A DNA stretch of 47,353 bases from Promethearchaeota archaeon (GTDB lineage: Archaea; Asgardarchaeota; Lokiarchaeia; Sigyniarchaeales; SOKP01): assembly GCA_016839585.1 (NCBI GenBank), contig JAEOTZ010000025.1, forward strand, positions 1-47,353. The letters are read 5' to 3'. Every line of letters starts with the position of its first letter. Position 1 is the first letter of the stretch. The notes under the pieces were generated by a model, which saw only the letters and a program-made list of their open reading frames with translations, ran no database searches and had not been told where the DNA came from. The position numbers and the translations under genes are program-made. Below, one piece after another: positions 16,075 to 34,314 of this stretch.

Positions 16075-16653
16075 TTAAAATTCTAGAAATCCTGGATCAT
16101 CAAAGATATCTTCTATTTTTCGCTCTTTCTTTATTTTTGTTTCACTTTCAGCAAATAAGGACTCTTCATCTGTTCTAACACCTCGTTCTAATTCCTCTGT
16201 ATCAAGCTTCAATAAAGTATCCTTTTCAAGCTTTTTATATTGTTCAGCTTTCATTTTCCAGTCATTAACTTTGTCCATATCGATATTATCTTCCTCTAAT
16301 AATATTGCCGCTTTTATTCTGCAAAGATCCGACAATATAGAGTAAGCTAATGCAAGTTCACCCCATTCACCTTTTTCTTTCAATCTTCCAACTCTTTTTT
16401 CTAATCTCAAGAGTTCTTGATCTGCATAATGAATATCTATAAAATCTCCAAAAGCATCTACTGGTTCTGAAATTGCATTCACCAATACTTCCTTGGTTAA
16501 TCCACAATTCCCACATTTTACTGTAGCAAAAGCACCCTTCTTTTTTATATCAGTAACTTTTACACTTTTTTCACCACACTCTGGGCATGTAAATATTTTG
16601 GGTACTTTCTTAACTCTTTTATATGTTGGCTGTTTCCTTTTTCTTCTTCCCAT
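16075..16653 (-). CDS. elf1: Transcription elongation factor Elf1 with long C-terminal extension
   Basis: MGRRKRK, KIFTCPECG...VKCGNCGL...EPVDAFGDFID. Confidence 0.92.
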   Translation of the reverse strand: MGRRKRKQPTYKRVKKVPKIFTCPECGEKSVKVTDIKKKGAFATVKCGNCGLTKEVLVNAISEPVDAFGDFIDIHYADQELLRLEKRVGRLKEKGEWGELALAYSILSDLCRIKAAILLEEDNIDMDKVNDWKMKAEQYKKLEKDTLLKLDTEELERGVRTDEESLFAESETKIKKERKIEDIFDDPGFLEF

Positions 16654-17944: not shown

Positions 17945-17963
17945 ATTATTTATGTGAATATCT

Positions 17964-18914
17964 TTGGTCGAATGTCCCTCATGTAAGATAAAAATGGAAC
18001 CTCTTGTGGTTGGGATCTTTCAATGTCCCAATTGTAAAGTCATTATAAAAGAGAAGGTAGAGAAGAAAGAAGCACAAGAAGAAGAAATTAAAGACGATCT
18101 TGTAAAAGATGGTAAAAATTTCAATTTAAATCGTAAATATGAAATTCCTGAAAAAGGAATTGTCGTAAAGGACGGTAAATTTGCTGTTTTGTTATGCCAT
18201 AGTGCTTATTTAAAAAGTGATAGATATATTCGCTTATCGTGGTGGAAGAATTCTTTTACCCAACATGTTGGTATGATGAAAATTACAGAAAAAGATGTTT
18301 TAAAAAACTTGATTATTGCTTTAGAAAAAATAGATAAGGCATTCGATGATTTCTGGGGTTGGCATGGAACATTTGGAAACAAAAAAGAAAAAACTGCGGA
18401 ACAAATAGAAAGAGAAAAACAATATGATATTATTAAATACAGGATCATAGAAAACCGAACATGTCCAACCTGCCAAAATAAGATGAATAAAGGAAAATTA
18501 CATTATGAATGTACCCACTGTGGTGAAATAGTTGTTTTTGAAGGTTATAATCAGCCTATATTCAATCTTGATTCAAAAAATTTAAGTTTAGATTTTGAAG
18601 GAAATTTTCCAATAAATTTTTACATGCCCTTAAGTGGTATAACTATTAAAAGGTTGATGGGTGAATGGAAAGCTTTGGTTGTTATTTATTCGAAAAATAA
18701 TCCAAACAAGAAGTGGCTGAGATTCTATTGGTGGGTTAGAGATTTATCTAGTTTCATAAAGTCTGGTTATCGTGAAATGGGCGATGGAACTCAAATGGGC
18801 TGGAGTACTCAGAAAGGGGCAGGTTCAACAAATATTTATGATAAAAAAGAACTTAAAAAATTAATAGACGCTTTAAAAAGAATTGCACAGGAAATAAACT
18901 GGAAAATAAATTAA
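17964..18914 (+). CDS. Two (Zn-ribbon + PC4-like) repeats; putative nucleic-acid-binding protein
   Basis: CPSC..CPNC and CPTC..CTHC; repeats AVLL..YIRLSWW..KDVLKNLIIALEKI and ALVV..WLRFYWW..KKELKKLIDALKRI. Confidence 0.65.
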   Translation: MVECPSCKIKMEPLVVGIFQCPNCKVIIKEKVEKKEAQEEEIKDDLVKDGKNFNLNRKYEIPEKGIVVKDGKFAVLLCHSAYLKSDRYIRLSWWKNSFTQHVGMMKITEKDVLKNLIIALEKIDKAFDDFWGWHGTFGNKKEKTAEQIEREKQYDIIKYRIIENRTCPTCQNKMNKGKLHYECTHCGEIVVFEGYNQPIFNLDSKNLSLDFEGNFPINFYMPLSGITIKRLMGEWKALVVIYSKNNPNKKWLRFYWWVRDLSSFIKSGYREMGDGTQMGWSTQKGAGSTNIYDKKELKKLIDALKRIAQEINWKIN

Positions 18915-18929
18915 GATGAGGTTGAATAT

Positions 18930-20093
18930 ATGTCAATTATTCCGGCATTGAAATGTTCATGGAATGAACTATTGGATAATTTTATAAAAGGATTAGATAA
19001 TGCAATTGTTGAATTGAATGCACATAGTATTGATACTATCGCAGGAGCATTACCACTTCTATTAGATCGACTAAGAATAATGCAAAATAATTTCCCGGCA
19101 AACAATGGACAAATCTTTAAACAAACTATAGATGACATCATTCAGAACGCTTTTTTTCCTGAAAATCTGACTTTTGCACAAAGTTTTGAAAAGATCCTTA
19201 ATTCTAGAACACATGAGCAAGATTTTATCATAAACGAATTAGTAAATGGCTTTATCACCTCAAAAGCAAAAGCAATTGCATCCTACTCGCAAGGACCGAT
19301 AATTGATCGAATGGTTGAGGCTTTTTCTAAAAGAAATGATTTTCACATTGTAGATCATCAATTTTATGCCATGTTTGGAGATCCGAATGTGCCAAGAACA
19401 TACGTGATGATTAATCTCCAAATACTTATTGATCTTTTTGGATTAGTTTCGGAAGAGCTTGTTATTCAAAAAGATATAAGAAAAAGTGAAGAAAAAGTAT
19501 ATACTTTTTACACTTTTCCAAACGATATTCTTAACGTCCTCAAAAAAAAATACTTAATTACAAATCCAGTTACAGGTAATCTTTCCGTTTCCGAAGCTTT
19601 TGACAGAAATGTATTTATTTGTTTATTTTTAGCAAATATCGCAGTAAATCGAAGTAACCTGAGCAGTATTGGAGGTAAATATACAGTTAATGGTATATCT
19701 GCTATTTTTGCCCTTATATTAGTATTAAGTTTTATGCCAAAAATGACAGCCACTCCTCAGCTACTTAAGCATCCATCATTTTCAAGCCCTAATGTATCCA
19801 TAAGTGTAATTCCAAAATCTTGGATGATGAAAAAAGTTTTGGAGTCAATATTTGAACCTCTCATAAAAATAATTGCTTTCAGACTGGGTGGAATACAGTG
19901 GTGCGAAGCAATAATTGATACGGAAATTAATAAAAAAATTCATACTCAAATCAGATTTCTCTTAAAAGATGTGAATAAATGGATTTTAGGTGAATTATGT
20001 CGAGTTGAAATTCCAATTTTTATAGAAATATTAAATACCATACAGGTGACTCTACAAGCTCAACAAAGTGGAAGAACAACAACGACTCCATAA
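18930..20093 (+). CDS. Hypothetical protein, 387 aa
   Basis: Long ORF with GAGGT upstream; no recognised motif. Confidence 0.8.
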   Translation: MSIIPALKCSWNELLDNFIKGLDNAIVELNAHSIDTIAGALPLLLDRLRIMQNNFPANNGQIFKQTIDDIIQNAFFPENLTFAQSFEKILNSRTHEQDFIINELVNGFITSKAKAIASYSQGPIIDRMVEAFSKRNDFHIVDHQFYAMFGDPNVPRTYVMINLQILIDLFGLVSEELVIQKDIRKSEEKVYTFYTFPNDILNVLKKKYLITNPVTGNLSVSEAFDRNVFICLFLANIAVNRSNLSSIGGKYTVNGISAIFALILVLSFMPKMTATPQLLKHPSFSSPNVSISVIPKSWMMKKVLESIFEPLIKIIAFRLGGIQWCEAIIDTEINKKIHTQIRFLLKDVNKWILGELCRVEIPIFIEILNTIQVTLQAQQSGRTTTTP

Positions 20094-20159
20094 TTCAGGT
20101 TAAAAATTTTATTTTAAATATATTAATAAATATCAGAAAATATAAGGAGAGGAATAAAA

Positions 20160-21440
20160 ATTAGTAAAAGAATTAAACCCGGAAAAGTTCGAGAGAAATG
20201 GACCGATATTTTACCACGTTATCTTACTTTTATCAGCCACATGAAACCAATATTGAGGGAAACTCGTAGAATTATAATAGAATTAATCAAAGAAGATCCA
20301 GTCTTGTTATTATCTCCTGCTATATTAAACAGTGTTCGCGAAAAAGAAGAGAAGAGAAATATCCGCAAAGTTAGAGCTTTATCTGAATTTTCTGCGTTAT
20401 ATAGGTCGAATATCTATGAAATTATGAATGAATTTATTGAGGAGTTTAAAGCTAAACTTACTCCACAATTGCTGGCTGATTATATAATTGACCATCTAAA
20501 GGAATCTATTGAAGCTTTAAATATTCTATTAAAAATAACTAATCCAGATCAGAATAATTTCCAAAATACATATTTACAACGTTTAGTAAAGTATATTGAG
20601 GATAGATTATTCCCGAAAGGAGCGAGTATACAAATTATATATCAAAACCTATTAAACCAGTCGAAAGATTTCTTCGAATGTCAACGACACTTACTTCAGC
20701 CTCATACCTTTTATCGAGAAAAATTAGAAAATCCCGATTATTTTGTAATTCCGGGAAATTCTCCTAAGATTTATCAAATAATCAACAATATAACATCCTT
20801 TTATAACTTAGATCCTAACTATGGAGTTTTTCCGGAGAGACCAGCGTATGAAATACCAATGATCTTAAAAAATGAAGTGTTTGAGCCATATATTGATTCA
20901 ATCGCTAAGACTGAGCAGGAAGCAGTCGAAAAAGTTGTTGATAAAATCGGTCTACGCATAATAGATGATCTCTTTTTAGCACCCCAAGAAGCTTTTATCG
21001 ATATATTAATGTCTAACAATTTTTTAAGACCTGCTGTACAACCTAGTGGTAAAATAAGATATATCCCTCAATTTAGCAACGAAACTCTGATTCTATATTA
21101 TTTAGCTTTTGCGTCCATGAGACGAGGCTTTTTATCTAAAGAATTGATCAATTGGATCGCTATGAACTTTGCTCTTTTAATATATATGGGTATTTTAAAA
21201 TGGAAATTATCAGACGACAATATATTCTACAAAATCTTTAAAGATTTGCAAACTAACGAAAAAATTTTACCTTACTTAATGAAATTAATCTGTTTTCCAA
21301 ATTATTTGGGAATGGATAAAATGAAGATTAGGGATAGTGTCCAATATAGAAAGGAAATTTTCAATTTTATTGGATCACAGATCGATAATCTAAAAACATT
21401 GATTGAAGAAATCGCAATTTTTTTAGATACTGCACCATAA
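20160..21440 (+). CDS. Hypothetical helical protein; probable ATT start upstream of the tracked ATG at 20241
   Basis: Frame is open from ATT 20160 (ISKRIKPGKVREKWTDILPRYLTFISHM...), with AAGGAGAGG 7 nt upstream. Confidence 0.7.
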   Translation: MSKRIKPGKVREKWTDILPRYLTFISHMKPILRETRRIIIELIKEDPVLLLSPAILNSVREKEEKRNIRKVRALSEFSALYRSNIYEIMNEFIEEFKAKLTPQLLADYIIDHLKESIEALNILLKITNPDQNNFQNTYLQRLVKYIEDRLFPKGASIQIIYQNLLNQSKDFFECQRHLLQPHTFYREKLENPDYFVIPGNSPKIYQIINNITSFYNLDPNYGVFPERPAYEIPMILKNEVFEPYIDSIAKTEQEAVEKVVDKIGLRIIDDLFLAPQEAFIDILMSNNFLRPAVQPSGKIRYIPQFSNETLILYYLAFASMRRGFLSKELINWIAMNFALLIYMGILKWKLSDDNIFYKIFKDLQTNEKILPYLMKLICFPNYLGMDKMKIRDSVQYRKEIFNFIGSQIDNLKTLIEEIAIFLDTAP

Positions 21441-21460
21441 TTTTTATAAAAGGATGAGAA

Positions 21461-22699
21461 ATGATGAGTGAAAATAAATATTCGGATGAAGATATAGTTT
21501 TAAAACTAAGTAAATTTGGAACAGTTTATTTATACAAACAAATAACTGACGATAAAACTAATATCAAAGGAAATGCGAATCAAAAAGAAAGAATAAATGA
21601 TTTTTTTAAAGCTTTAGTTAAATTTGAACAATTCGCTGAGAAATTAAAAAGTACAACTTTATTTCCAAATTTAACTTTACTTCTATATGGACCTCCTGGG
21701 ACTGGTAAAACCTCATTAATTAGAGCTTATGCTAGAGAATATAAAATAAATGTATGTGTGGTCGAATCTGATCGATTAGTATCTTCTCTTTTAGGTGAAA
21801 CTGTAGATAATATTCGTAACGCTGTAGAAACGGCTATGGATATCGCAAAAAAAAATGGACCATTCATATTGTTTTTTGACGAAATTGATGCAATTGGTTC
21901 TGAGCGTTCAAATGTTCATGAAGTAGGGGAAATTAAACGTGCAGTAATATCCTTTTTACAAACTATTGATAGGATTAGTTATGAAGGTGTACCATTAGGG
22001 ATTATTGGAGCAACGAATCATCAGCAACAACTCGATTCAGCAATTTGGCGACGTTTTACCTTTCATCTTGAGTTCGACTTCCCTGATTTTGAGTTAAGAG
22101 AAGAAATTATAAAATCCTTTATAGAAAGAATTACATTTGCTGGGTTAATGATTGAATATAATACAATTGAAAATGAATTGCAGAAGGAACTTATTAAGAT
22201 TAATTCAATTGCTGAAGATCTGCAAGAAACTCAACAAATTAGTTCAGAGGATATGATAATTAAAAGAGTAAGAGAACTAGATGAAAACAAATTAATAACT
22301 TTAACCTATGGTTATTCGGGATCAGATATAGAGAGAGGTATAAGAGTAGCATTAATTAAATCAATTGGAGAAAATAAACCAATGACATATAAGATGTTAT
22401 ATGATTCTTTAAAACTTGTGGGTGGTACTGCTACTCATGTAGAAAGACAAGAGTTATTATCAAGTCCAACAACTATAGATTTATCACATGAAGGAAATAA
22501 ATTATTAGGAACTTTTAGGGAAAATTTTAATGAGGAGGAATTTCAAGAATATTTATCAAATATAATTAAAATTTTTGAAAATATACATAATATTTTTGAA
22601 AAAAATACCAATTTAATAGAAAAATCAAGAAAATCTAAAAATCCTGAGGCTAAATTCTATAGTATTATAGAAAAATTATATAAATTAAAGAATGGATAA
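21461..22699 (+). CDS. Single-domain classical AAA+ ATPase
   Basis: GPPGTGKT, SSLLGET, FFDEID, EVGEIKR, GATNHQQQLDSAIWRRF, GYSGSDI. Confidence 0.95.
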   Translation: MMSENKYSDEDIVLKLSKFGTVYLYKQITDDKTNIKGNANQKERINDFFKALVKFEQFAEKLKSTTLFPNLTLLLYGPPGTGKTSLIRAYAREYKINVCVVESDRLVSSLLGETVDNIRNAVETAMDIAKKNGPFILFFDEIDAIGSERSNVHEVGEIKRAVISFLQTIDRISYEGVPLGIIGATNHQQQLDSAIWRRFTFHLEFDFPDFELREEIIKSFIERITFAGLMIEYNTIENELQKELIKINSIAEDLQETQQISSEDMIIKRVRELDENKLITLTYGYSGSDIERGIRVALIKSIGENKPMTYKMLYDSLKLVGGTATHVERQELLSSPTTIDLSHEGNKLLGTFRENFNEEEFQEYLSNIIKIFENIHNIFEKNTNLIEKSRKSKNPEAKFYSIIEKLYKLKNG

Positions 22700-22755: not shown

Positions 22756-22893
22756 ATGTCAGAAAAGAAAAAAATAAAAGAGGATATTATTAAACAAATT
22801 GATGTTTCAGTTAAGAATGGTCTAGATGAATATGCTTTCCTTGAAAAATTTGAAGAGAAATTAAAAAGATATTTAGAAGGGAGACTAAAATGA
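22756..22893 (+). CDS. Small 45-aa helical protein (not in ORF track)
   Basis: MSEKKKIKEDIIKQIDVSVKNGLDEYAFLEKFEEKLKRYLEGRLK; stop overlaps the SMC-like start as ATGA. Confidence 0.65.
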   Translation: MSEKKKIKEDIIKQIDVSVKNGLDEYAFLEKFEEKLKRYLEGRLK

Positions 22894-24824
22894 AGGCTAC
22901 ATTAAAAATTGAGAATATTGGTCAAAAATTAGGACCACAAACATTAAGTTTCAATAGCGGAGTAGTAACATTAATACAAGGAAGAACTGCAGCGGGAAAG
23001 AGCAGAATTATAAAATCCTTCGCTTTGGCATTATCTTATCCTATTAAATCAGAGGTTTTAATCGAAGAAGGAATTAATTTCGGCATTCTTAAAGGCGGAG
23101 AAGCAGAATATTTGCCTTTAGTAAACTCAAGTAAGGAAATTGCTAATATTGAGTTACTATATGACGATGTGAATAGAAAAGTAGAATTATTTAGGGATGG
23201 AAAAATAGAAATTAATACACCTGGAAACCAAAAATTTTTGTATTCTAGTATGCTTGTGAAAAACTCAAGAATTCACAACTATATTACTAGAGGAAACGCT
23301 GATTTTAAGTGGATCGTTGATGAAATGTCGCTTGCAAAAGATTATGAAAAAATATTAGCAAGTATAGATTACCAAATAAAGGATTTAAAATCAAAAGAAG
23401 AAGAAATTGATCAGAAAAAAGAACTAATTGAAAAAAAAGACAAAGAGAAAAAAGAAAAAGAATCAGAGCAAAAAAGATTATTGATTAAACTAAAAGAGAA
23501 AGACGATGAAATCGGGAATTATAAGTTTGATCCAAAGATAATTAAAGAAGAGAATAAAATTTCAAAGGAACTTGACAACGTTAGAAAAGCTTTGAAGGAA
23601 GAATTAGACACTAGAAATAATTACGAGAAAGAAATAGGAGCTTTTAAAAAAAAGGTAGATGTTGACAAATTAATTGAAGAAATAAAAAATAAGCAAAAGG
23701 AAAAGGAGAAAGAAGCAAATAATTTAAAGGAAACTAAGGTTGAAGATCTTCAAAAAGAAATTATAAAAATTCAGGACTCAAAAAGTAAGGAAGAGCAAGA
23801 GAAAGTTAAATATGAAACAAGAAAACAACTTTGGGAAATGGTGAAAATTGAAGAAGGAAATAAATGTCCATTATGTCTATCAGTAGGTAAAATTACTAAA
23901 GAAGATAAAAAATTAAAGATCGATGAGTATAATAAGTATATTAAGGAACACCAATTAAAGGTTAAAGAATTGGCTGTGCAGATTAATAAAAAACAGGATG
24001 AAATCAATAAAAAAGCTAAATTACCTGAAATTGAAAAAGAAATTTCAAAAATCACTAATCAACTAAAACACATAATAGATGAATCAGAAGAGTCAAAATT
24101 AAAAATTACCCAAATATCATTAAAGATTAAATCTAGTGGCCCTAGAATAAAAAGTTATAATGAAGATATTGGTAAATGCGAGAAGAATTTAGCTGCAATT
24201 CAATTAAAAAAACAAGAAGATGTAAAATACCAGAAATTGAAAAATGAAAAGAGTAAAATTGATCAAAGTATAGGAAGCATTAAAGAACAACTAGATAAAA
24301 TTGAAAAAACAATTAATGACGCAAAAAGTATTGAAGCATACGAAGTTAAAATTAATGATCTAGATATAGCTAAAAATATTATAGAGGAACTATTAGACAT
24401 TCTAAATGAAACTAGAAATCATCTGGATAAAAAAATTACTGAACAACGGGTGGGTGCGGCAAAGAAGTTTAATAGTTCAACAGAAAATCTAATTAGGGAA
24501 CTTAAATTTGATACATTTAAAGAAATTTATTTGGATTTAAATGATTATAGGTTAAAAATAATTGGTAATAATGATGATACACAAGAACTTAGTTCTGTTA
24601 GTGGTGGTGAAAAGGCGATAATATCATCTCTTTTACAAATTAGCGCTAAAGAAACATATCTCTCGGAAGTACCCTTTTTAATAGGTGATGAGATTATCCT
24701 AGACCTTGATTCCGAGCGCAGTGAGATTTTCCTAAATTACCTAAAAAAAATCGCAAAGGAAAAAGATTGGTTTATAATACTTACTCAAATAAATAATGAA
24801 GATTTAACCATTACCGAGCTTTAA
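22890..24824 (+). CDS. Short SMC/Rad50-like ABC ATPase (archaea-specific SMC-related, Sph-like) with zinc hook
   Basis: IENIG, Walker A GRTAAGKS, coiled coils with central CPLC, signature VSGGEK, Walker B PFLIGDE..LD. Confidence 0.9.
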   Translation: MKATLKIENIGQKLGPQTLSFNSGVVTLIQGRTAAGKSRIIKSFALALSYPIKSEVLIEEGINFGILKGGEAEYLPLVNSSKEIANIELLYDDVNRKVELFRDGKIEINTPGNQKFLYSSMLVKNSRIHNYITRGNADFKWIVDEMSLAKDYEKILASIDYQIKDLKSKEEEIDQKKELIEKKDKEKKEKESEQKRLLIKLKEKDDEIGNYKFDPKIIKEENKISKELDNVRKALKEELDTRNNYEKEIGAFKKKVDVDKLIEEIKNKQKEKEKEANNLKETKVEDLQKEIIKIQDSKSKEEQEKVKYETRKQLWEMVKIEEGNKCPLCLSVGKITKEDKKLKIDEYNKYIKEHQLKVKELAVQINKKQDEINKKAKLPEIEKEISKITNQLKHIIDESEESKLKITQISLKIKSSGPRIKSYNEDIGKCEKNLAAIQLKKQEDVKYQKLKNEKSKIDQSIGSIKEQLDKIEKTINDAKSIEAYEVKINDLDIAKNIIEELLDILNETRNHLDKKITEQRVGAAKKFNSSTENLIRELKFDTFKEIYLDLNDYRLKIIGNNDDTQELSSVSGGEKAIISSLLQISAKETYLSEVPFLIGDEIILDLDSERSEIFLNYLKKIAKEKDWFIILTQINNEDLTITEL

Positions 24825-24922
24825 TTATTATATATAATCATTAAAAAAAATATATTAAATTATAACGTTAAAGAATAAAAGATCTGTAATTTTATATTTG
24901 TATAAATAAAAATTGAGATTAT

Positions 24923-25393
24923 ATGTTGGAATTTAGACCGAATTTAATCTTGGTAATAATTGACTTTAAGTACGAATCTAATAAGAAAATAGAAGAAAGT
25001 GGAACGCAAGTAAGTAATAAAGGCGTGCCTAATGAGATTAGAAGAGCATTTTTGGGAGAAAAGAAAGGAAGTCCAAATATTCCAAAAAAAATGCAGGAAA
25101 TGGCAGGAACAACTGAATCCATTATTTTTCCTATACATTTTTCATTAATCAAAAAACCTATTAAAGTTGGGACTAGGTTTAGAAACACAGGCGTTGGGGC
25201 GATGATATTATATGAATACTTTGGGTTATTTCAAGATTTTAACGACTTTTTAAAAGATTTTGACAATTTTCTTAAAAATAAGATCTTTTCTAAAGAATTA
25301 GATGAGAAAGGTAAAGGAAAATATTCCTATAGCTTATCTTGTTCGGATTATAAAATAATTGTTGGAAAGGACTGGCAAGAAATTAGAGAATGA
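24923..25393 (+). CDS. Small hypothetical protein, paralog A (ferredoxin-like fold pattern)
   Basis: Shares NEIRRAFLG.K..SPNIPK, HF.L.KKP, VGA.I.YEY.GL.QDF and YK.I.GK.W with 26873..27283. Confidence 0.85.
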   Translation: MLEFRPNLILVIIDFKYESNKKIEESGTQVSNKGVPNEIRRAFLGEKKGSPNIPKKMQEMAGTTESIIFPIHFSLIKKPIKVGTRFRNTGVGAMILYEYFGLFQDFNDFLKDFDNFLKNKIFSKELDEKGKGKYSYSLSCSDYKIIVGKDWQEIRE

Positions 25394-25435
25394 AAAATCA
25401 AAAAACTTAAATCTTGGAATCCAAGAATTATATAT

Positions 25436-26809
25436 ATGATAACTGAATTTAAAGAACGGGAAGCTATCAATCTTTTAAAAAAACTAAAAAAAAAGACTTG
25501 TGTATGTTATTCGGGGGGTAAAGATAGCTTAGTTGCTTTAGATTTATCGATTAAAAGTGGGATTTCCGATGTTGTTTTCTGTGATACTACCATTGAGTTC
25601 CAACAAACTTTAGATAATATTGAGGAAATAGAATATTTTTATGGTATAAACATCACTAGAGTTTCAGCACCCAGACCCTTCTTTGATTTGGTATATGATA
25701 TGGGTTTTCCCACAAGAGCATTGAGATGGTGCTGTAAAGTTTATAAATTTTCACCTTTCGAAGAATATGCCAGAAAAAACGGAATTCAAGCATATATAAC
25801 AGGTTTAAGAAAAGAAGAAAACTCTAAAAGAAAATCTTACAAAATGGATGATAAAAATCATTTCTTTAATTCAAATCAGATAAATCCCATCTTAAATTGG
25901 TCAGAAGATGATATATGGACATATATTCATAAATATAATCTTCCCAGTAATCCCTTATATGACTTAGGATTTAAGAGAATAGGTTGTTGGCCATGTCCTT
26001 TTAAATCCCGAGAGGAATGGAAATTAATTGAAAAAAATTTTCCTAAAAAATACGTTTTACTTCAAAAAACTCTTAAGAATATTCTAAAAGATTGTGAGGG
26101 TATTGGAATAAGAGATTTAAACGATTTTATAACTAATTTCAAATGGGCTGGTTATATGAGACCTCAAAATACCGAATTAAAGGGGAAAATTGAAGTTTCT
26201 TCTAAAATGACGATGATTCACCTCCAAAATTTTGAACAATTAGAAAGGGTAAAAAATGTGATTCCAATCCTATCTAAGGATTTTGAAGTTGTAAGAAATT
26301 CTATTATTATCAAAAAAAAATTACGAAGACAAAGCGTAAAAATCTTAACTGAAAAAGCCATAAATTGCGTTGGTTGCGGTGCCTGTGTTGCATTATGTGA
26401 TTCTCTTAGACTTAGGGAAAGGCATTTAATAGTTGATAAAGAAACGTGCACATCTTGCTCCCGTTGTATTAAAACTGATAAAATGAGAGGTGCATGTATC
26501 AAGAGAAATTTCTCTCCTTTTCGTTATACTGTAGCATCATGTCAAGATAAATTGATAGAGACTAAAGATATATTATTAAATCCAAGTTCTCGAGTAGGTT
26601 TAATTAGAACTCGAAAAAGTTTAGAAATTATTGAAGAAAAGTTTAAAATAATAGCAGAAATAAAAAAAACCAACGAGTTATTAATCATAAATAATAAAGA
26701 ATTCAAAGCATTTGCTTATAAATCTAAAGGATTAGTGGAAATAAAATTCTGTCCGAAGAACGATAATTTAGAAAAAGTTATGAACTATTATAGGAAGATT
26801 ATGGCATAG
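25436..26809 (+). CDS. PAPS-reductase-family (CysH/DndC superfamily) protein with 4Fe-4S dicluster domain
   Basis: PP-loop YSGGKDS, RWCCKVYK, GLRKEE..R, NPILNWS, RIGCWPCP; CVGCGACVALC...CTSCSRC. Confidence 0.92.
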   Translation: MITEFKEREAINLLKKLKKKTCVCYSGGKDSLVALDLSIKSGISDVVFCDTTIEFQQTLDNIEEIEYFYGINITRVSAPRPFFDLVYDMGFPTRALRWCCKVYKFSPFEEYARKNGIQAYITGLRKEENSKRKSYKMDDKNHFFNSNQINPILNWSEDDIWTYIHKYNLPSNPLYDLGFKRIGCWPCPFKSREEWKLIEKNFPKKYVLLQKTLKNILKDCEGIGIRDLNDFITNFKWAGYMRPQNTELKGKIEVSSKMTMIHLQNFEQLERVKNVIPILSKDFEVVRNSIIIKKKLRRQSVKILTEKAINCVGCGACVALCDSLRLRERHLIVDKETCTSCSRCIKTDKMRGACIKRNFSPFRYTVASCQDKLIETKDILLNPSSRVGLIRTRKSLEIIEEKFKIIAEIKKTNELLIINNKEFKAFAYKSKGLVEIKFCPKNDNLEKVMNYYRKIMA

Positions 26810-26872
26810 AAGAGTTTAAAAAAGTTTTTACAATATATATTTTAAGATAAAGATAAAATTTAATGAATTCCT

Positions 26873-27283
26873 ATGGTTTCAGATTATATCATAATAATAA
26901 TAGAATTTCAATATGATACACAAAAAGAAAGGACAGTTTCTAATGAAATTCGAAGAGCTTTTTTAGGGCTTAAGAGATCAAGTCCAAATATTCCTAAAAA
27001 CATCCAAGAAATCCTTAACTCTTCGCATCTACTTTTAAACCCCGTCCATTTCGCACTGCTTAAAAAACCAGAAAAGATTAAAATAACGGAAACCAAATTC
27101 AAATTGAAAAATCCCGCAGTCGGAGCTGTAATAATTTATGAATATATTGGTTTATCTCAAGATTTTGAGACTTTTATAAAATTTTTTAATAAATATCTAA
27201 AGGATTTATTTAAAGAAAAAAAACAATATTATTTGAAGAACTGTAGTTCTTACAAACTTATCATTGGAAAAAATTGGGAATAG
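26873..27283 (+). CDS. Small hypothetical protein, paralog B
   Basis: Colinear similarity to 24923..25393. Confidence 0.85.
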   Translation: MVSDYIIIIIEFQYDTQKERTVSNEIRRAFLGLKRSSPNIPKNIQEILNSSHLLLNPVHFALLKKPEKIKITETKFKLKNPAVGAVIIYEYIGLSQDFETFIKFFNKYLKDLFKEKKQYYLKNCSSYKLIIGKNWE

Positions 27284-27292
27284 AAGAATAAG

Positions 27293-27961
27293 TTGGTTCT
27301 TATCACAATTTCTCAAGATTTGATCTGTTTTTTTCAAGAAAAGATTTTGCAATGGGTCGAAAATAATCTTGAAAAATATCCTTGGCGTCAAAATCGGACA
27401 CCTTACAGAGTTTTGATAAGCGAGATCCTATTAACTAGGACAAATGTAGCTCAAGTAATTCCTGTATACACAAAATTTATAAAAAAGTATCCGAATTTAG
27501 ATGATTTTCTTGAAACTAGCTATGAAATATTGTCGAAATTAATTTCAAGCTTAGGTTTATTATATCGAGCTAAAAAAATGGTAGATTTAATCAAAATTAT
27601 TAAAGAAGAGTATGACATGAAAATTCCTAAAACATTTAAAGCATTAAAGCATCTTCCGGGGATTGGTGAATACGGAGCAAATGCGATATTATGTTTTGGT
27701 TATAACAAAAGGGAAGGTTTAATTGATACAAATTTTGTTAGAATCTTCAGTCGATTTTTTAATGCTAAATCAAAAACAAAGACGCCAAAAACGGATAAGT
27801 TTTTATGGAGTTTTTCTAAAGAAATTGTCCCTGAGAAAAATTATATCTCATATAATTATGGAGTTATAGATTTTGCAAATAAAATCTGTTCAAGTAGGAA
27901 ACCGAGATGTAATTCTTGTATTTTAAAAGAACTATGCTTTTATTACAATCAACATTTCTGA
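27293..27961 (+). CDS. HhH-GPD DNA glycosylase, MIG-type G:T/U mismatch (MutY-related)
   Basis: YPWR..PYRVLISEILLTRT, HhH LPGIGEY, IDTNFVR, FeS motif C-x6-C-x2-C-x5-C; adjacent to a C5 MTase. Confidence 0.88.
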   Translation: MVLITISQDLICFFQEKILQWVENNLEKYPWRQNRTPYRVLISEILLTRTNVAQVIPVYTKFIKKYPNLDDFLETSYEILSKLISSLGLLYRAKKMVDLIKIIKEEYDMKIPKTFKALKHLPGIGEYGANAILCFGYNKREGLIDTNFVRIFSRFFNAKSKTKTPKTDKFLWSFSKEIVPEKNYISYNYGVIDFANKICSSRKPRCNSCILKELCFYYNQHF

Positions 27962-28003
27962 ATTCAGGATTATGAATTAATTTTTATTGAATGATAAACA
28001 GAT

Positions 28004-29641
28004 TTGTTTTTAAGATTTAAATCCTATATAATAAGAAGAAAAATGATGAATAGGTTTAAATGGAAGAACAATATTTATTTGGAAGATAATTCTGGTTATT
28101 TTAAAAAGAGACAATTTAGGATTCAGGAAGAAATTTCTGAAGTATCGTTCCAAAGAGCATATAAAAATTATAAAAAATTTAAAGAGAAAGTTGACAAATT
28201 TAATAGCGCTCAAATAATAAAGCTAAAAAAAACAATTAGTTTGCTGGAAAAATCCTCAAAAAAAACAGTACTTGATCTCTTTTGTGGTGCTGGAGGGTTA
28301 AGCCTTGGATTTGAAAAAGCCGGATTTGAAGTTGTTTTAGCAATTGATAAAGATTTTTCCGCTTGCCAAACTTATAATTTCAATTTTGAAAAAACTGCAG
28401 TATTATGCTTAGATTTAACTGAATTAGAAGTAAAACCGAATTGCTTAGAGAAGAAACTTGGAGTTGATAATTTAAAATTCGATATGATAATTGGTTCTCC
28501 ACCATGTCAAGGTTTTTCTCTTATTTCAAGATCTAAAATAAGATCATTAATCCAAAACAATACTTGGAATGATCCTGAATTAATTAAAGACGAAATTCAT
28601 TATAATAAAGACACCCACTGGTTTTATAATGATCCTAGAAATATCCTCTATAAAAAATTTCTAAATTATGTTAATTACTTTAAACCTCTCATTTTTGTAA
28701 TAGAAAACGTACCAGGTATGAAATCTTACCATAATGGCAGAATATTAACACAGATTAAATTAGATTTTGAAGATATAGGTTATTCGATTCAAAATAAAAT
28801 TCTTAATTCTGTTGACTTTAATGTACCTCAAAAAAGAAAACGACTTTTTTTTATTGGAGTAAATTGTGAATCTAAAACAAACGCAAGAAGAAGAAATAAG
28901 TATGTTCAGATTTCAAAACAAAAAGCTTTAGACTTGTATCTTGAATTTGATACTAAAAAATCTTATCCGCCACCTTTTAAATTTCCCAATGGATTATCAA
29001 AATACAAAATTTTAGATAAAAAAATTATAACGGTCAGGGATGCTATTGGAGATTTGAATGAAATAACAACTTTTGGTGAGGAAGTACCTTATAATCTAAA
29101 TACTCTTAAAAATGATTATTTAAAACTCTTGAGAAAAAATGTCAAGGAAAAAAAAATTAATAACTTTAAACCAAGAGACATGGTCAAAAGAGACAAGGAA
29201 ATATTTCGATTTTTAGAGCAAGGAGATAAATATAAGGATTTACCAAAAAATATAAGAGATTTTTATTATAATAAGCAGTCAAAAAAAAATGAAAAAAATA
29301 ACATTCAAAAAATCATTAATTCAAAAATTAAGGAATGTATGCCTTATGGAGATGGTAAAAAATTTGGTGATAAATTGAAAAGGTTAATCTGGGATGAATC
29401 GTCTTGGACACTAGTTGCTCATATTTATAAGGATGGCTATATGTATATACATCCTGAACAAGATAGAACTATAAGTGTAAGGGAAGCAGCAAGATTACAA
29501 TCATTTCCTGACTCTTTTATTTTTATGTCTAGCCGTACTAATCAATTTAAACATGTAGGGAATGCTGTTCCTCCCTTAATGAGCCAAGTCTTAGCAAATC
29601 ATCTACTGGATTATTTTGAGTCTCAAAAAAATCAGAAATAA
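28004..29641 (+). CDS. DNA (cytosine-5) methyltransferase
   Basis: Motifs DLFCGAGG, GSPPCQGFS, ENVPG, PQKRKR, REAARLQSFPD, VGNAVPP; start may be the ATG near 28043. Confidence 0.97.
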   Translation: MFLRFKSYIIRRKMMNRFKWKNNIYLEDNSGYFKKRQFRIQEEISEVSFQRAYKNYKKFKEKVDKFNSAQIIKLKKTISLLEKSSKKTVLDLFCGAGGLSLGFEKAGFEVVLAIDKDFSACQTYNFNFEKTAVLCLDLTELEVKPNCLEKKLGVDNLKFDMIIGSPPCQGFSLISRSKIRSLIQNNTWNDPELIKDEIHYNKDTHWFYNDPRNILYKKFLNYVNYFKPLIFVIENVPGMKSYHNGRILTQIKLDFEDIGYSIQNKILNSVDFNVPQKRKRLFFIGVNCESKTNARRRNKYVQISKQKALDLYLEFDTKKSYPPPFKFPNGLSKYKILDKKIITVRDAIGDLNEITTFGEEVPYNLNTLKNDYLKLLRKNVKEKKINNFKPRDMVKRDKEIFRFLEQGDKYKDLPKNIRDFYYNKQSKKNEKNNIQKIINSKIKECMPYGDGKKFGDKLKRLIWDESSWTLVAHIYKDGYMYIHPEQDRTISVREAARLQSFPDSFIFMSSRTNQFKHVGNAVPPLMSQVLANHLLDYFESQKNQK

Positions 29642-29683: not shown

Positions 29684-30274
29684 TTAAAACTCTAAAAAGC
29701 CGGGATCATCAAATATCTCCTCTATTTTCTTATCTTTCTTCAAAGTAAATTTACTTTCTTTAGAAGATTCATCATTTGCTTTCGAATCTCTTTTTAATCT
29801 TGTTTCTTTTTCTAACCTTTTATATTTTTCAGATTTTAAATTCCACTTTGAAATTTCATTCGGACTTGGATCATTGTCGTTCTTTAATAAACAGGCTCCT
29901 TTTGCAGTATATAGCTCTGACAATATTGAATAAGTACGTGTTAGATCACCCCATTTCTCTAATTTTTTCAGATGTTCAATACTCTTTTCTAACCTTTGGA
30001 TCTCTTCATCTGCATAATAAAGATCCAAAATTTCACCATAAACATCAATTGGTCTGTAAGCCTTAATAATCTTTATCTCTCCTGAAAGGGAGCATGTTAA
30101 ACATTTTACTTTAGCTAGTAATTCATTAAATGTAATAGAAATTGATATAGAGTTACAATTTGGACTTAAGAATTTACCTCGTTTCATTTTAACTCTGTTT
30201 AATTGTGATTCCATTTTATTTCTAAAGATACGCTTGCGGGCTGTAATTTCATTATTCTTTTTCTTTTCTTTCAA
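29684..30274 (-). CDS. Diverged Elf1 paralog (first Zn-ligand Cys replaced by Ser)
   Basis: KFLSPNC..VKCLTC..PIDVYGEILD-YADEE..RLEK..WG..YSILS..IEEIFDDPGFLEF aligns with 16075..16653. Confidence 0.85.
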   Translation of the reverse strand: MKEKKKNNEITARKRIFRNKMESQLNRVKMKRGKFLSPNCNSISISITFNELLAKVKCLTCSLSGEIKIIKAYRPIDVYGEILDLYYADEEIQRLEKSIEHLKKLEKWGDLTRTYSILSELYTAKGACLLKNDNDPSPNEISKWNLKSEKYKRLEKETRLKRDSKANDESSKESKFTLKKDKKIEEIFDDPGFLEF

Positions 30275-30307: not shown

Positions 30308-30607
30308 TTACCTTCTTATGTTTTTCGGGGATATACTTAGGAAGGTGGTTACTTTATTCGAAATATCTTTTTTTATAAGAATTATACACCCAATCCATTC
30401 GTAATCTTTAACGAAAGCTTGGGAATATAAATAATCACTTTAAACCGTCCCATGCTTATACCCATGTATAATCTTTATTATACGATCACCTTGATAATAT
30501 TTTTTTTTAAATTCTAATCTAATCTCTTTTTTTGCTTCATAGAGACTATATCCATGAAGATCAATTACGGCTAGGGAGTCTTGTTCAATATAAATACTTC
30601 TAATCTT
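30308..30607 (-). pseudogene. Smr-domain pseudogene
   Basis: Minus strand reads VIDLHGYSLYEAKKEI...IIKIIHGYKHGTV*SDYLYS..., with in-frame TAA at 30442-30440; paralog of 33949..34314. Confidence 0.85.
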
Positions 30608-30729
30608 TTAACAAAAATCACTGTCATAAATATATTGAGATAACACGACCACTGAGTTTACCTAATACATATAACTGTCCTAATTGTGGGACCTTTAAAA
30701 AAAACATTAATAACCAATTTAGTATTTAA
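30604..30729 (+). pseudogene. Zn-ribbon tail remnant of an Smr-Zn-ribbon gene
   Basis: NKNHCHKYIEITRPLSLPNTYNCPNCGTFKK versus STNYCYKCNRVMRPLKLSNTFVCPKCGAFKK in 33949..34314; no ATG start. Confidence 0.75.
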
Positions 30730-30832: not shown

Positions 30833-31720
30833 ATGATAGATAACCAATCATTTAATCTTGAAAAAATAAAAGAATTAACAAATCCAATCAATGATTTGCA
30901 TGGGAAATCCCTTGAATTGGAGAAAATCTATGAAGAGTTCATAGAAAATTGTAAAGGATATCCTTTAGATAAACCTAGAAATATACATATCGACAATTTT
31001 CAAGAATTTTCGAAAAAAATAGATAAGTTTTATCATAAAATATTAGAAAATTCAAATAAGTGCCTAAATAAATTTATAGTATTAAAAGATAAATTGGAAA
31101 GAAAATATTATACTAATTTTGTCAAAAAACTAAGTAATTTAAAGATTAATTTATCTGATTTTATATACAGAATAGGAAAATCAACTATTAAAAATAAAAA
31201 AATTTGTAAAATAATCGAAAATCCTTCATTTACTTATTCAATTACACCAAATCAGTGGTTAGAATTAATAAATTCATTAAAAAAAAATTCAATTTTTCTA
31301 TCTACTGAGAATGATATTAAAAATTTTCTTGATTCCCAAGTAGAAGAATTAAATGAAATTGCTATAAAAATCAGCCCTCATGAGCAAGAAGAAAATGAAA
31401 TTAAACAGATATTTAATTATTCTGATGTAGAATATTTTAAATACTCCCGTGGGGAACTGGATAGAAGAAAAAGAAGAGAAAAAAGATTAAAGCTGAAAGA
31501 ATTAAAAGATAGACCTGCTAAAGAAATTCAGATGAGTCCGGAAATGTCAGAAAAGATTCAGATGTATAAAGAAAAATTAGAAAGTAGCTTTAAGGAGAAA
31601 TATCTCATTCAAAAGGATGATTCAACTGATCCATTAGATTTAATAAGAGAAAGAAAGAAAACTAAAGAAAGAGAATATAAATCCCATATTCAAAAATTTA
31701 AAAGTAATGATAAGGAGTGA
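30833..31720 (+). CDS. Hypothetical helical protein with charged C-terminus
   Basis: 295-aa ORF directly upstream of the SMC-like gene. Confidence 0.75.
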   Translation: MIDNQSFNLEKIKELTNPINDLHGKSLELEKIYEEFIENCKGYPLDKPRNIHIDNFQEFSKKIDKFYHKILENSNKCLNKFIVLKDKLERKYYTNFVKKLSNLKINLSDFIYRIGKSTIKNKKICKIIENPSFTYSITPNQWLELINSLKKNSIFLSTENDIKNFLDSQVEELNEIAIKISPHEQEENEIKQIFNYSDVEYFKYSRGELDRRKRREKRLKLKELKDRPAKEIQMSPEMSEKIQMYKEKLESSFKEKYLIQKDDSTDPLDLIRERKKTKEREYKSHIQKFKSNDKE

Positions 31721-31726
31721 TTTTAA

Positions 31727-33280
31727 ATTACAAAAATTTTATTAAACTTAGGAGATCACAATTTCTCAATCGACGACAGATTTACTCTGATAAAGGGTAA
31801 GTTTGAAAGAAATATTGTTAAATCCTTTCAAGGAGATAATATATTTGAAAATTTAGAAGAATTTGACTTTATATATTTAATTGATTTTATTAATATCATT
31901 CAATTCCAAGGAAATAAATATCAAAATATAGATAATTCACTAAAGTTGTTAGAATATTTAGGACAATATAATGAAATTACGAATTCTAATTTATCAGTTT
32001 TAAAAATCTTCTTAGATTTGCTAAAAAAGTTTAATTTAAGAATGAATTTTACTCGATTATTGAAGGAGAAAGTTCTTTTAAAAAAAATTTTAGATTTAAT
32101 TAAAGTTTTAAAAAATTCTGAAGAATTTTTAGAAAACTATAAAGAAATAAAAAAATTGGAAATAGACCTTAAATATAACAAAAAAAAATTAAATTTTCTC
32201 AATGAAGATTACACTAAAATAAAAAATCAAAATGATAATATAAAGAATGAGATTAGTAATTATAATTTGAATATTCAATCTCTTAATGAGAGAATTACAA
32301 GAAATCAAAAAGAAATTCACGGAATAATTAATGGTATAAACAGTGAATTCACTTTCGATAAAGAAGAGACTTCAAAATCTGGAAGGATTCTAATGCTTCA
32401 AGGTCAGATAAGGAATTTTAATTATGAAATTAAACAAAACCGTTCCAAACTTGATGAACTTCAAACTCAAATTGATAAAATTACACCTAAATTAGAAATT
32501 TTGAAAAAAGATTATAAAATTTTAAATAATTTAATAGAAAATATTAGCAATCAAATGGTTAAAAATAAATCAGAAGTGATCTCAAAGCTAAATGATGAGT
32601 TTAATGAAAGTTTATTGAAATTTGAGTGGTCAAAAACTTCAGATGATATAAAAAAAGATCTTAAAACTATAAACAATAAAATAGAAAGTATTTCCGAAAC
32701 ACTTAACTTAAATTTAAGTCAAGATCAGTTAGGCTTAACAAATTTTATCGAAGATATAAATAAAATTGAAGAAATATTGTTTAATGAACAAGATGAGCTC
32801 AAAATATCATACTCAGATGAAGAAATAAAAGAAGTGATAAATAGTTTCAGAGAACTAGAAAATTTAATTAAAAACCTCGAAGAAATTATCAATAAGTTCC
32901 TAATTCAGATTAATCTAAAATGCTCTTTTAATATCATTACAAATGAGGATGACACCCGCTTTAAAATTCAATTAAACTTTATTCGTACAAAAGATACAGT
33001 TAATTTTACTGAATTAACAACACCCAAAAAGATATTTTTTGTAATAACCTTTTACTTATCTATTAAAATCCTCTTAAATAACTATAATATTATCTTTTCC
33101 AATATTTTTCTCCCTGATGAATATAATAAAAGAGGATCTGTTTATCGAACTATTAAGAAAGTATTACCGGTATTTAAGACTGATAATGAACTCAAAAATT
33201 TTAATCTTATATTTATCATTTCCAACTTAGAAATGAAAAAACCAATTGAAAATATAAAAATCATAAACATTGATGAATAG
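31727..33280 (+). CDS. Degenerate SMC-like coiled-coil protein (ATPase motifs eroded); probable ATT start
   Basis: Frame is open from ATT 31727 after AGGAGTGA; FTLIKGKF in the Walker A position, long coiled coil, ELTTPKKIFF in the LSGGEK position, IIFSN in the Walker B position. Confidence 0.65.
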   Translation: MTKILLNLGDHNFSIDDRFTLIKGKFERNIVKSFQGDNIFENLEEFDFIYLIDFINIIQFQGNKYQNIDNSLKLLEYLGQYNEITNSNLSVLKIFLDLLKKFNLRMNFTRLLKEKVLLKKILDLIKVLKNSEEFLENYKEIKKLEIDLKYNKKKLNFLNEDYTKIKNQNDNIKNEISNYNLNIQSLNERITRNQKEIHGIINGINSEFTFDKEETSKSGRILMLQGQIRNFNYEIKQNRSKLDELQTQIDKITPKLEILKKDYKILNNLIENISNQMVKNKSEVISKLNDEFNESLLKFEWSKTSDDIKKDLKTINNKIESISETLNLNLSQDQLGLTNFIEDINKIEEILFNEQDELKISYSDEEIKEVINSFRELENLIKNLEEIINKFLIQINLKCSFNIITNEDDTRFKIQLNFIRTKDTVNFTELTTPKKIFFVITFYLSIKILLNNYNIIFSNIFLPDEYNKRGSVYRTIKKVLPVFKTDNELKNFNLIFIISNLEMKKPIENIKIINIDE

Positions 33281-33283
33281 AAA

Positions 33284-33781
33284 ATGGATAATAATAATTT
33301 TAAAGAAACCACAAGAAAAATTGCTCGTTTAATATTAAATAGTCAACAAAAAATGATTAGGAAGGAAGATCTGAAGAATGTATGTGGTTCTTTGGATTTC
33401 GAAAAAGTTTTCAGAGAAGTTGAGGAAAACTTATCCAAATTAGGTTTCGACTTATTTTCTACAAGTTTTATAGGGCAGGAGTATTATGTTCTAACTTCTG
33501 AAGGTAAGGATGATAATATAACCCCCTCTCAGTATGGAATCTTGGCCTTAATAATAACATTAAGTAAAGAAGTCGATGAAAATATAAAAATTAAAGATTT
33601 AAAAGAAATATTTGCTGAAGTTTGGGATACCGATGCTCAATTTCTAATTCATAGCGACTATTTAAGAATTTTTGATGAATTTGGAATAATTAAAGTCACA
33701 CCTTTAGGAAAAGCTACAATGAAAAATATCATAAAAGATTTACAATTGAAAAATTTACTTAATATATTCGAAAATGAATGA
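33284..33781 (+). CDS. Tandem winged-helix KITE-like protein (Nse3/MAGE, Nse1, ScpB-like)
   Basis: IARLIL..MIRKEDL..FEKVFREVEENLSKLGFDL..YYVL then QYGILALII..L..LIHSDYL..IKVTPLG. Confidence 0.65.
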   Translation: MDNNNFKETTRKIARLILNSQQKMIRKEDLKNVCGSLDFEKVFREVEENLSKLGFDLFSTSFIGQEYYVLTSEGKDDNITPSQYGILALIITLSKEVDENIKIKDLKEIFAEVWDTDAQFLIHSDYLRIFDEFGIIKVTPLGKATMKNIIKDLQLKNLLNIFENE

Positions 33782-33948: not shown

Positions 33949-34314
33949 ATGAGAATAGATTTACACGGTTATTCTTTAGATGATGCATTGGATGAAATAA
34001 TGTATAAACTTGATGAATGTAAAGAAGTACAAGATTCTATACTAGAAATAATTCACGGATATAAGCATGGTTCAAAAATAAGAGAATATATTCGATCTAA
34101 TAAGTTTTTAAATATAACGATCCAAAAAGGATTTGTTTTGAGAATTAAAAAACTCCCTGATCCAGGAATAACGATAATAGAATTGAGTGGGGCAAAGAGT
34201 CAAAAAAATAGGCTTTCTACCAATTACTGTTATAAATGTAATAGAGTTATGCGCCCTCTTAAATTATCTAATACTTTTGTATGTCCGAAATGCGGAGCAT
34301 TCAAAAAAATATAA
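33949..34314 (+). CDS. Smr domain protein with C-terminal Zn ribbon
   Basis: RIDLHG, IIHGYKHG, DPGIT; CYKC..CPKCG. Confidence 0.9.
   Translation: MRIDLHGYSLDDALDEIMYKLDECKEVQDSILEIIHGYKHGSKIREYIRSNKFLNITIQKGFVLRIKKLPDPGITIIELSGAKSQKNRLSTNYCYKCNRVMRPLKLSNTFVCPKCGAFKKI

Follow-up and report, generated by a model that had tools for sequence, protein, structure and literature searches.

To our knowledge, the DNA phosphorothioation systems Dnd, Ssp, BREX-4, and Tdp all pair an enzyme similar to 3'-phosphoadenosine-5'-phosphosulfate (PAPS) reductase with an NTPase. Phosphorothioate synthesis requires a PAPS-domain protein and a P-loop NTPase, and the minimal set consists of BrxP and BrxC, with a cysteine desulfurase acting in trans (PMC12914056). 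BrxP and a subset of the SspD proteins combine a PAPS domain with an alpha+beta domain and a Cys region of the 4Fe-4S-like kind (Rakesh and Krishnan, PMC12839542). The DndD/CxC ATPase and DndE, a small tandem-repeat DNA-binding protein, are argued to form an obligate core that recruits modification and restriction enzymes (PMC10853773). For the archaea-specific proteins related to SMC (structural maintenance of chromosomes) ATPases, hereafter ASRPs, no consensus gene neighbourhood has been reported (PMC9389158). Here we describe a block of genes that combines an SMC-like ATPase with a PAPS-reductase-like Fe-S enzyme. It lies in a stretch of 47,353 nucleotides from a Promethearchaeota archaeon (assembly GCA_016839585.1, contig JAEOTZ010000025.1, positions 1 to 47,353 of the forward strand), which was analysed as a whole and is called the window below. 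The source genome (G000) has a size of 3.45 Mb, a low GC content, and a completeness of 99%, and its Elf1 and Lsm genes agree with an archaeon of the Asgard type.

We propose that the block encodes a DNA phosphorothioation module similar to Dnd, Ssp, and BREX-4, which would be built on a different ATPase clade and on new partner proteins, and we give this reading a probability of roughly 0.5. The unit is best defined as the tail of an AAA+ ATPase, a 45-aa protein, the SMC-like ATPase, twin small proteins, and the enzyme, inserted in a core operon. The proposal starts from observations on gene content, conservation, co-occurrence, insertion site, catalytic motifs, and the covariation of the AAA tail. 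The features of the unit are the following.

22508-22699, plus strand: helical tail of about 60 aa at the C-terminus of the core AAA+ ATPase (gene at 21461-22699), forming the left edge of the block; identified by comparing carriers with non-carriers.
22756-22893, plus strand: helical microprotein of 45 aa, with an ATGA overlap with the ATPase start.
22890-24824, plus strand: Zn-hook SMC/Rad50-like ABC ATPase of 644 aa; identified by its motifs, NCBIfam ASRP, and profile matches in the PDB.
24923-25393, plus strand: small protein A, 156 aa, with a ferredoxin-like alpha+beta fold in the AlphaFold2 model and no named family.
25436-26809, plus strand: BrxP/SspD-like PP-loop ATP pyrophosphatase of 457 aa, with a PAPS_reduct domain and Fe-S Cys motifs; identified by PF01507 and PADLOC.
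26873-27283, plus strand: small protein B, 136 aa, identified as a paralogue of A.

A preliminary description of this DNA had reported a co-directional run of seven open reading frames (ORFs), namely these five genes, a mismatch glycosylase, and a C5 cytosine methylase, and the run is real: all seven ORFs were verified at the coordinates given here, on the plus strand and closely spaced. The intergenic gaps along the run measure 56, -4 (the ATGA overlap), 98, 42, 63, 9, and 42 nt. The same description had stated that sulfate-assimilation genes are missing nearby, and indeed none was found in the flanks examined (about 14.3-34.8 kb); ATP sulfurylase and adenosine 5'-phosphosulfate (APS) kinase lie on another contig.

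The PAPS-reductase-like enzyme matches PF01507 at 4e-40, with weak Fer4 matches. Among the PADLOC profiles, BrxP is the best (1.9e-46), followed by SspD (2e-19, on the PAPS domain) and by DndC (3.6e-7, over about 80 residues). On the BrxP profile, which has 779 positions, the window enzyme covers positions 133-376 and a relative (L014) covers 132-511, and the DUF4007 part is unmatched. The SGGKDS, RWCC, GCWxCP, CxxCxxCxxxC, and CxxCxxC...C motifs, of which the last two are Cys clusters of the ferredoxin type, are invariant in six homologues, down to 32-36% identity, and the intact, invariant SGGKDS PP-loop indicates an ATP pyrophosphatase. Against the DndC equivalog TIGR03183 the score is 21.6 bits (cut-off 290.4), and the fold class and the PP-loop are shared. 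The equivalogs for CysH and APS reductase all score far below their cut-offs (TIGR00434, 94.8 against 165 bits; TIGR02055, 91 against 235; TIGR02057, 66 against 254). CysH-type reductases are not known to have a functional PP-loop, and their catalytic Cys is C-terminal.

The distribution of the enzyme points in the same direction. It is the sole PAPS_reduct gene of the source genome, and within the genus a full-length homologue occurs in three genomes (G000, G041, and G017), which are exactly the genomes that carry the module. ATP sulfurylase is present in 38 of the 54 genus genomes, including 36 without the enzyme, and is not present in the carriers G041 and G017. In other genomes of the genus a short PAPS_reduct gene (about 250 aa), encoding a protein 30-33% identical to the enzyme, adjoins ATP sulfurylase; in some of these relatives the short PAPS/APS reductase comes immediately after it. 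On this evidence, the enzyme is judged not to serve sulfate assimilation. In the source genome, ATP sulfurylase and APS kinase are found at C54:26925-29479, and a PAPS/APS reductase of the housekeeping type is missing. Cysteine desulfurase genes are present elsewhere in the same genome.

In the 644-aa ATPase, Walker A reads GRTAAGKS, the signature motif is SGGEK, and Walker B is of the D-E form; a long coiled coil carries a CPLC hook at its middle. Ten homologues share residues G36/K37/S38, C326/C329, S571, E574, and D600 without exception, and the family profile, when compared to the PDB, matches SMC and Rad50 heads. The best NCBIfam match is ASRP (NF045487; 183.6 bits, E 6e-54, over the full length), with the cut-off of 300 not reached, and the best PADLOC match is LmuB (5e-7 for the window protein, from 5e-7 to 1.7e-16 across the family). 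Judging from these matches, the protein appears to be a divergent relative of the ASRPs. Twelve related loci extend over the position directly 5' of the ATPase gene, and every one of them has an ORF of 44-53 aa there; the ATGA overlap was checked in the window.

The twin small proteins A and B are 42% identical (E 6e-40), and A has no Pfam, NCBIfam, or PADLOC match. The family is rare, with 24 matches in a set of 5.8 billion clusters and 75 clusters in one of 1.84 billion representatives; in several of these 75, two copies are fused in tandem. Scans by sequence pattern returned nothing for the small protein in the collections of genome contigs and viral contigs. Most related loci carry either two copies or one fused tandem copy, and the twin proteins probably act as a pseudo-dimer, because other lineages encode the counterparts of A and B as a single fused chain. 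In the AlphaFold2 models, small protein A (predicted local distance difference test score, pLDDT, 78.7) forms one ferredoxin-like beta-alpha-alpha-beta-beta-alpha-beta unit and the fused twin (pLDDT 80.1) forms two. Fold searches with both the single and the fused protein (Foldseek PDB, VIA wide, and ESM Atlas) gave generic ferredoxin-like or tandem-ferredoxin matches alone, such as M20 dimerisation domains, DyP/chlorite dismutase, and Cas6/RAMP, with Z up to 8.4 and low TM-scores; neither DndE nor KITE was matched in them. A HORMA identity had been considered, since the neighbouring AAA+ ATPase is TRIP13/IetA-like, and was set aside when the same searches gave no HORMA match. The prediction of a complex of A, B, and the microprotein with the ATPase partner scored 0.58, and scored 0.58 also when an unrelated protein replaced A, so that the score speaks neither for binding nor against it. 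Distant lone homologues of the small protein occur at L058:8228-8716 and L059:1573-1989, surrounded by numerous tiny ORFs, a D5-type primase-helicase, and an N6/N4 methylase. This context is virus- or plasmid-like and has no SMC-like gene, and these homologues may serve mobile elements as decoys of the host subunit.

The conserved core (the 45-aa protein, the ASRP-like ATPase, the twin small proteins, and the enzyme) recurs in five architectures across metagenomes and genomes. Class I (the window and L001-L005) has the order microprotein, ATPase, small protein A, enzyme, small protein B, glycosylase, and methylase. In class II (G257, G041, and L006) the order is small protein, microprotein, ATPase, small protein, DUF5591, TGT, HerA-type ATPase, DndB-like protein, and enzyme; the counterpart of this HerA-type ATPase in L007 has a Cas4-like nuclease domain. 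Class III (L007-9, L018, and L056b) presents a DpdB/DndB-like protein, small protein, microprotein, ATPase, PglZ, and Cas4-HerA. Its enzyme adjoins in L007-9 and L018, and in L056b, where the contig ends after PglZ, the nearest enzyme copy lies some 5 kb upstream, in L056a, a locus of class IV. Class IV (G017 contig 57, i.e., L014, and L056a) consists of enzyme, fused twin, microprotein, and ATPase, with a short AAA between enzyme and fused twin in L014. In class V (L057 and L019), two unknown genes are followed by a short AAA, small protein, microprotein, and ATPase; a PAPS_reduct protein of 270 aa comes next in L057, and the contig of L019 ends within the ATPase. The DndB-like protein scores 29.2 bits with Pfam DndB in G257 (cut-off 29.1), and its counterpart in L007 matches PADLOC DpdB at 2.2e-19.

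In all five architectures, the enzyme stands beside the ATPase set or a few kb away wherever the contig is long enough, and this adjacency holds down to 25-35% protein identity. The preliminary description had seen in the block a DNA-modification or defence-type system and had proposed to examine the co-occurrence of its genes. A block of this type, outside housekeeping, is supported; the enzyme and the ATPase are found together across divergent loci, and the enzyme does not behave as a housekeeping APS/PAPS reductase (its distribution is decoupled from that of ATP sulfurylase). On one metagenome contig, two systems of the family lie in tandem (L056:7762-20266): enzyme, fused twin, microprotein, and ATPase, then, about 1.6 kb on, DpdB-like protein, small protein, microprotein, ATPase, and PglZ. 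A more distant sister system, with an ATPase 25% identical, is located at L015:6127-12934 (G017 contig 53); its order is a 377-aa protein, a short AAA, a 123-aa protein, a 49-aa ORF, a 632-aa SMC-like ATPase, and an 812-aa TFIIB-repeat protein. This ATPase has better DndD, PbeC, and LmuB matches, and within the 15 kb seen a PAPS-reductase-like gene is absent.

The AAA+ ATPase gene upstream (21461-22699) stands at the left edge of the block. Its C-terminal tail is present in six of six block-carrying loci (the window, L001/2, L004/5, G257, L006, and G041) and in none of 11 genomes of the same genus without the block, where the protein ends ...GPPEI. The tail being found only with the block, the left edge of the variable region therefore falls inside the 3' end of the AAA gene, and the block either replaced this end or supplies an adaptor. 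The gene itself belongs to the core, because its upstream neighbour is present in 48 of the 54 genus genomes and the AAA gene follows at every genus locus inspected. It matches PADLOC IetA at 2.7e-60 and NCBIfam IteA with 186 bits (cut-off 510); no protease gene adjoins it, i.e., the IetA plus IetS pair of IetAS is not found here. In G041, the AAA upstream of the block is split in two ORFs of 173 and 211 aa (L033:13026-14176), by a frameshift or an assembly error.

We compared the block with the described systems. No PADLOC system model covers the gene set, as the preliminary description had expected, and we did not find the set described in the literature searched, the nearest being BREX-4/Ssp, Dnd/Pbe, and the BREX-related capture (BRC) systems. 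As in BREX-4 (BrxP-BrxC-PglZ-BrxL) and Ssp (SspABCD), the window enzyme has a PAPS_reduct PP-loop domain followed by a Cys-rich Fe-S region, the enzyme needs a partner NTPase, and the cysteine desulfurase is unlinked, as it often is in those systems; moreover, PglZ comes directly after the ATPase in the relatives L007, L018, and L056. Unlike in BREX-4/Ssp, the NTPase of the window is a Zn-hook coiled-coil ABC ATPase and not BrxC/SspC (DUF6079), DUF4007/SspB and BrxL are missing, and nothing in those systems corresponds to the twin proteins, the microprotein, or the AAA+ link. In PADLOC, no block protein matches SspB (DUF4007) or SspC (the DUF6079 ATPase), and BrxC, PglZ, and BrxL are likewise not found in the block; PglZ (PF08665) is found nowhere in the 99%-complete genome. 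The ferredoxin region of the enzyme, which had been put forward as a distinguishing novelty, is none, because this layout has already been described for BrxP, its best match, and for some SspD (PMC12839542).

By function, the block has the same parts as DndBCDE and PbeABCD: its Fe-S enzyme is PAPS-reductase-like, its coiled-coil ABC ATPase is about 650 aa long, and the small partner is built of two repeats. In relatives, a DndB-like ParB protein adjoins the enzyme, and the very small extra protein recalls PbeB. However, the window ATPase has a CPxC hook, whereas DndD is hookless and the CxC clade has CxC; the partner has a ferredoxin-like repeat and not tandem ribbon-helix-helix (RHH) units, and DndA is absent. 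The small proteins have no Pfam DndE match, and they are not DndE, because their models are ferredoxin-like and DndE is tandem RHH (PMC10853773). The statement that DndB and Pgl genes are not recognisable holds for the window, where DndB (DGQHR ParB-like) is absent from the block, and fails for the related loci, which have DndB-like and PglZ partners. Altogether, the DndD-DndE design seems to have an independent archaeal version in this module, with another ATPase clade, another partner fold, and an extra microprotein.

The ASRPs (ClsN/coalescin and Sph1/2) resemble the window ATPase in size, Zn hook, Walker motifs, and archaeal distribution, and they are its best family match. The window protein differs from them in a score under the family cut-off and in the fixed neighbourhood of its clade; furthermore, ClsN organises chromosome compartments, whereas the clade of the window ATPase is accessory and occurs in linkage with genes for modification and defence. 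BRC (PglZ, DUF6079, STAND, DUF4007, HerA, GNAT, and TGT; PMC12839542) is similar in that archaeal relatives of classes II and III combine PglZ or TGT with a HerA-type translocase; it differs in that the window-family ATPase is another one, STAND and DUF4007 are missing, and a PAPS-reductase-like enzyme and a DndB-like protein are present. With Lamassu, the PADLOC match is LmuB alone (5e-7), with no match to LmuA or LmuC.

By analogy with DndCDE, SspBCD, and BrxPC, an ATPase dimer, the A/B pseudo-dimer, and the microprotein would load on DNA and scan it. The PP-loop enzyme would adenylate its substrate using ATP, the Fe-S centres would deliver sulfur from a housekeeping cysteine desulfurase, and the DNA backbone would thereby receive a self mark of the phosphorothioate type. 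The AAA+ ATPase may remodel or load the complex through its tail, a role which a dedicated short AAA would take in classes IV and V. The formation of a complex, the action on DNA, and the sulfur chemistry are proposed steps of this scheme. No nuclease was recognised in the class I block, and related versions carry PglZ and the Cas4-HerA nuclease; the window version may be modification-only, or may rely on unlinked restriction genes.

Several points weigh against a phosphorothioation module. Within the block there is neither a cysteine desulfurase nor a restriction nuclease, and the enzyme could have a substrate other than the DNA backbone. By sequence the ATPase is not DndD, SspC, or BrxC: the window protein has no PADLOC match to these (for DndD, at E <= 0.01), and the ATPases of its relatives match DndD and PbeC weakly. 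The small proteins are neither DndE nor DUF4007, and their fold matches are generic. Finally, loci within one lineage are not independent, and the effective sample is about five architectures. In a different reading, the microprotein, the ATPase, and the twins (with the AAA+ ATPase) form a DNA-sensing defence complex of the Lamassu, Wadjet, or Pbe kind and the enzyme makes another mark, e.g., a thiolated or tailored base, perhaps linked to 7-deazaguanine. The LmuB match of the ATPase family, the pairing of the enzyme with TGT/DUF5591 and a DndB/DpdB-like protein in class II, and the sister system L015 (AAA, 123 aa, 49 aa, and ATPase), which lacks such an enzyme in the 15 kb seen, speak for this explanation. 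Yet TGT occurs in one of the five architectures and the enzyme in all five, PADLOC recognised no LmuA-like effector or JetABD partner, and the closest characterised relatives of the enzyme, BrxP and SspD, make phosphorothioate (PMC12914056); we regard it as unlikely, while still worth bearing in mind.

It is distinctly improbable that the ATPase module, the enzyme, and the methylase/glycosylase pair are independent cargo that shares a defence-island hot spot without working together. Cargo at the site does vary among genomes, and the glycosylase and methylase, the elf1 paralogue, and the Smr pieces described below are clearly variable add-ons; the enzyme, however, stays beside the ATPase module across five rearranged architectures, their presence matches in three of three genomes within the genus, and the genes are tightly spaced. 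Hardly credible is a housekeeping role, with the ATPase as a chromosome-organising ASRP (ClsN/Sph-like) and the enzyme as the assimilatory PAPS/APS reductase. ASRP is the best NCBIfam match, and the source genome encodes ATP sulfurylase and APS kinase on another contig, with the enzyme as its sole PAPS_reduct gene; the ATPase and enzyme genes are nevertheless both missing from about 50 of the 54 genus genomes, and the occurrence of ATP sulfurylase, the short reductases beside it in other genomes, and the intact PP-loop, all reported above, argue against such a role.

Two further genes of the run follow small protein B.

27293-27961, plus strand: MIG-type HhH-GPD T:G/U:G mismatch glycosylase of 222 aa, an add-on; identified by its match to 1KEA.
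28004-29641, plus strand: C5 cytosine DNA methyltransferase of 545 aa, an add-on; identified by PF00145.

The best solved match of the glycosylase is 1KEA, the MIG of M. thermoautotrophicum (E 3.5e-44), followed by MutY (2e-31); in PADLOC, it matches the REase_II "nicking endonuclease" profile over its full length (7e-46). The methylase matches PF00145 at 3.5e-58 and exceeds the cut-off of TIGR00675 (189.5 against 100.65 bits). A PF00145 methylase adjoins a MIG-clade HhH-GPD glycosylase, a combination which we take to be an established pairing (an M.MthTI-type methylase with Mig.MthI of pFV1), analogous to Dcm-Vsr. As in that pairing, the C5 methylase of the window is directly preceded by a MIG-type T:G glycosylase; it differs in that the window pair is appended to a larger block, with no restriction endonuclease recognised nearby. 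The two genes are confined to class I, among close relatives of the window (L001/L002 and L004). They had been counted as part of the system, and this does not hold: the pair is an ordinary add-on outside the conserved core. The methylase would add a second, independent 5-methylcytosine (5mC) mark, and MIG would repair the T:G mismatches that arise from 5mC deamination.

The region between about 22.5 and 30.8 kb forms an accessory island at a recurrent insertion site within a conserved Loki-type operon. In 11 genomes of the same genus, the two flanking core genes, for the AAA+ ATPase and for a protein of roughly 300 aa, are neighbours. In the window, about 8 kb separate the core AAA+ gene from the core gene for a 295-aa protein, and this insert contains the seven genes and, at its right end, two further elements.

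29684-30274, minus strand: elf1-like zinc-ribbon paralogue, cargo of the right end; PF05129 at 2e-9, 40% identical to the core elf1 (16075-16653).
30368-30702, no strand assigned: rearranged remnant of an Smr/Zn-ribbon gene; identified by tblastn with the intact copy at 33949-34314.

The tblastn matches place residues 3-68 of the Smr remnant on the minus strand and residues 89-120 on the plus strand, and the right end of the block precedes the core 295-aa gene at 30833. The elf1 paralogue is not at the site in genomes without the block. The block of G041 contains its own elf1-like/Smr-like pair. In the four block-free genomes of the same genus that were fully compared, the order is elf1 (minus), genes for proteins of 366, 322, 379, and 436 aa, AAA, 346, 481, and 169 aa, then Lsm (minus) and hypB (minus); in these four, the AAA gene directly precedes the homologues of window positions 30833-33781. 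The same site holds a different block in G041, in the metagenome contig L006, and in G257, which belongs to another genus of the family. Coherently with an accessory island, the SMC-like gene is present in 2 of 24 sampled relatives of the same genus and the small-protein family in 4 of 400 genomes of the phylum, and the 399-aa gene upstream of the AAA gene is present in 48 of the 54 genus genomes. Direct repeats flanking the insertion were searched for and none was found. The block is not a duplicate of the core genes at 30833-33781, because hhalign found no homology between these and the inserted ATPase and small proteins.

The host operon is a conserved eight-gene operon of the genus (window positions 16847-22699 and 30833-33781), with members of 365 and 316 aa (Zn ribbons), 387 and 399 aa, the AAA+ ATPase, 295 aa, a coiled-coil protein of 444 aa, and 165 aa. 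No member except the AAA has a family assignment, and the 295-aa and 444-aa genes diverge faster than their neighbours (34-37% identity against 60-75%).

More broadly, and with somewhat less assurance than the module itself, we tentatively suggest that the block represents an archaeal DNA-marking family, so far undescribed and seen here mainly in Asgard-type archaea. In this family an ASRP-type ATPase, a microprotein, and a pseudo-dimeric ferredoxin-like pair would guide a BrxP-like enzyme and plug into a core AAA+ ATPase via its tail, i.e., a constant platform with swapped marks and effectors (5mC with MIG, TGT/7-deazaguanine, or PglZ with Cas4-HerA). If true, this would be the first function for a branch of the ASRPs outside chromosome compartmentalisation. 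The ASRP-like Zn-hook ABC ATPase of the locus would be the fourth kind of NTPase to serve phosphorothioation, and it would come with partner proteins of no known family. The covarying tail of the AAA+ ATPase hints, in an unusual way, that an accessory system borrows a core machine of the cell, and the locus shows modification and restriction cargo being exchanged at a fixed insertion site of a conserved Asgard operon. The archaeal SMC-related proteins are poorly understood, and for one branch of them the phosphorothioation reading offers a concrete, testable function.

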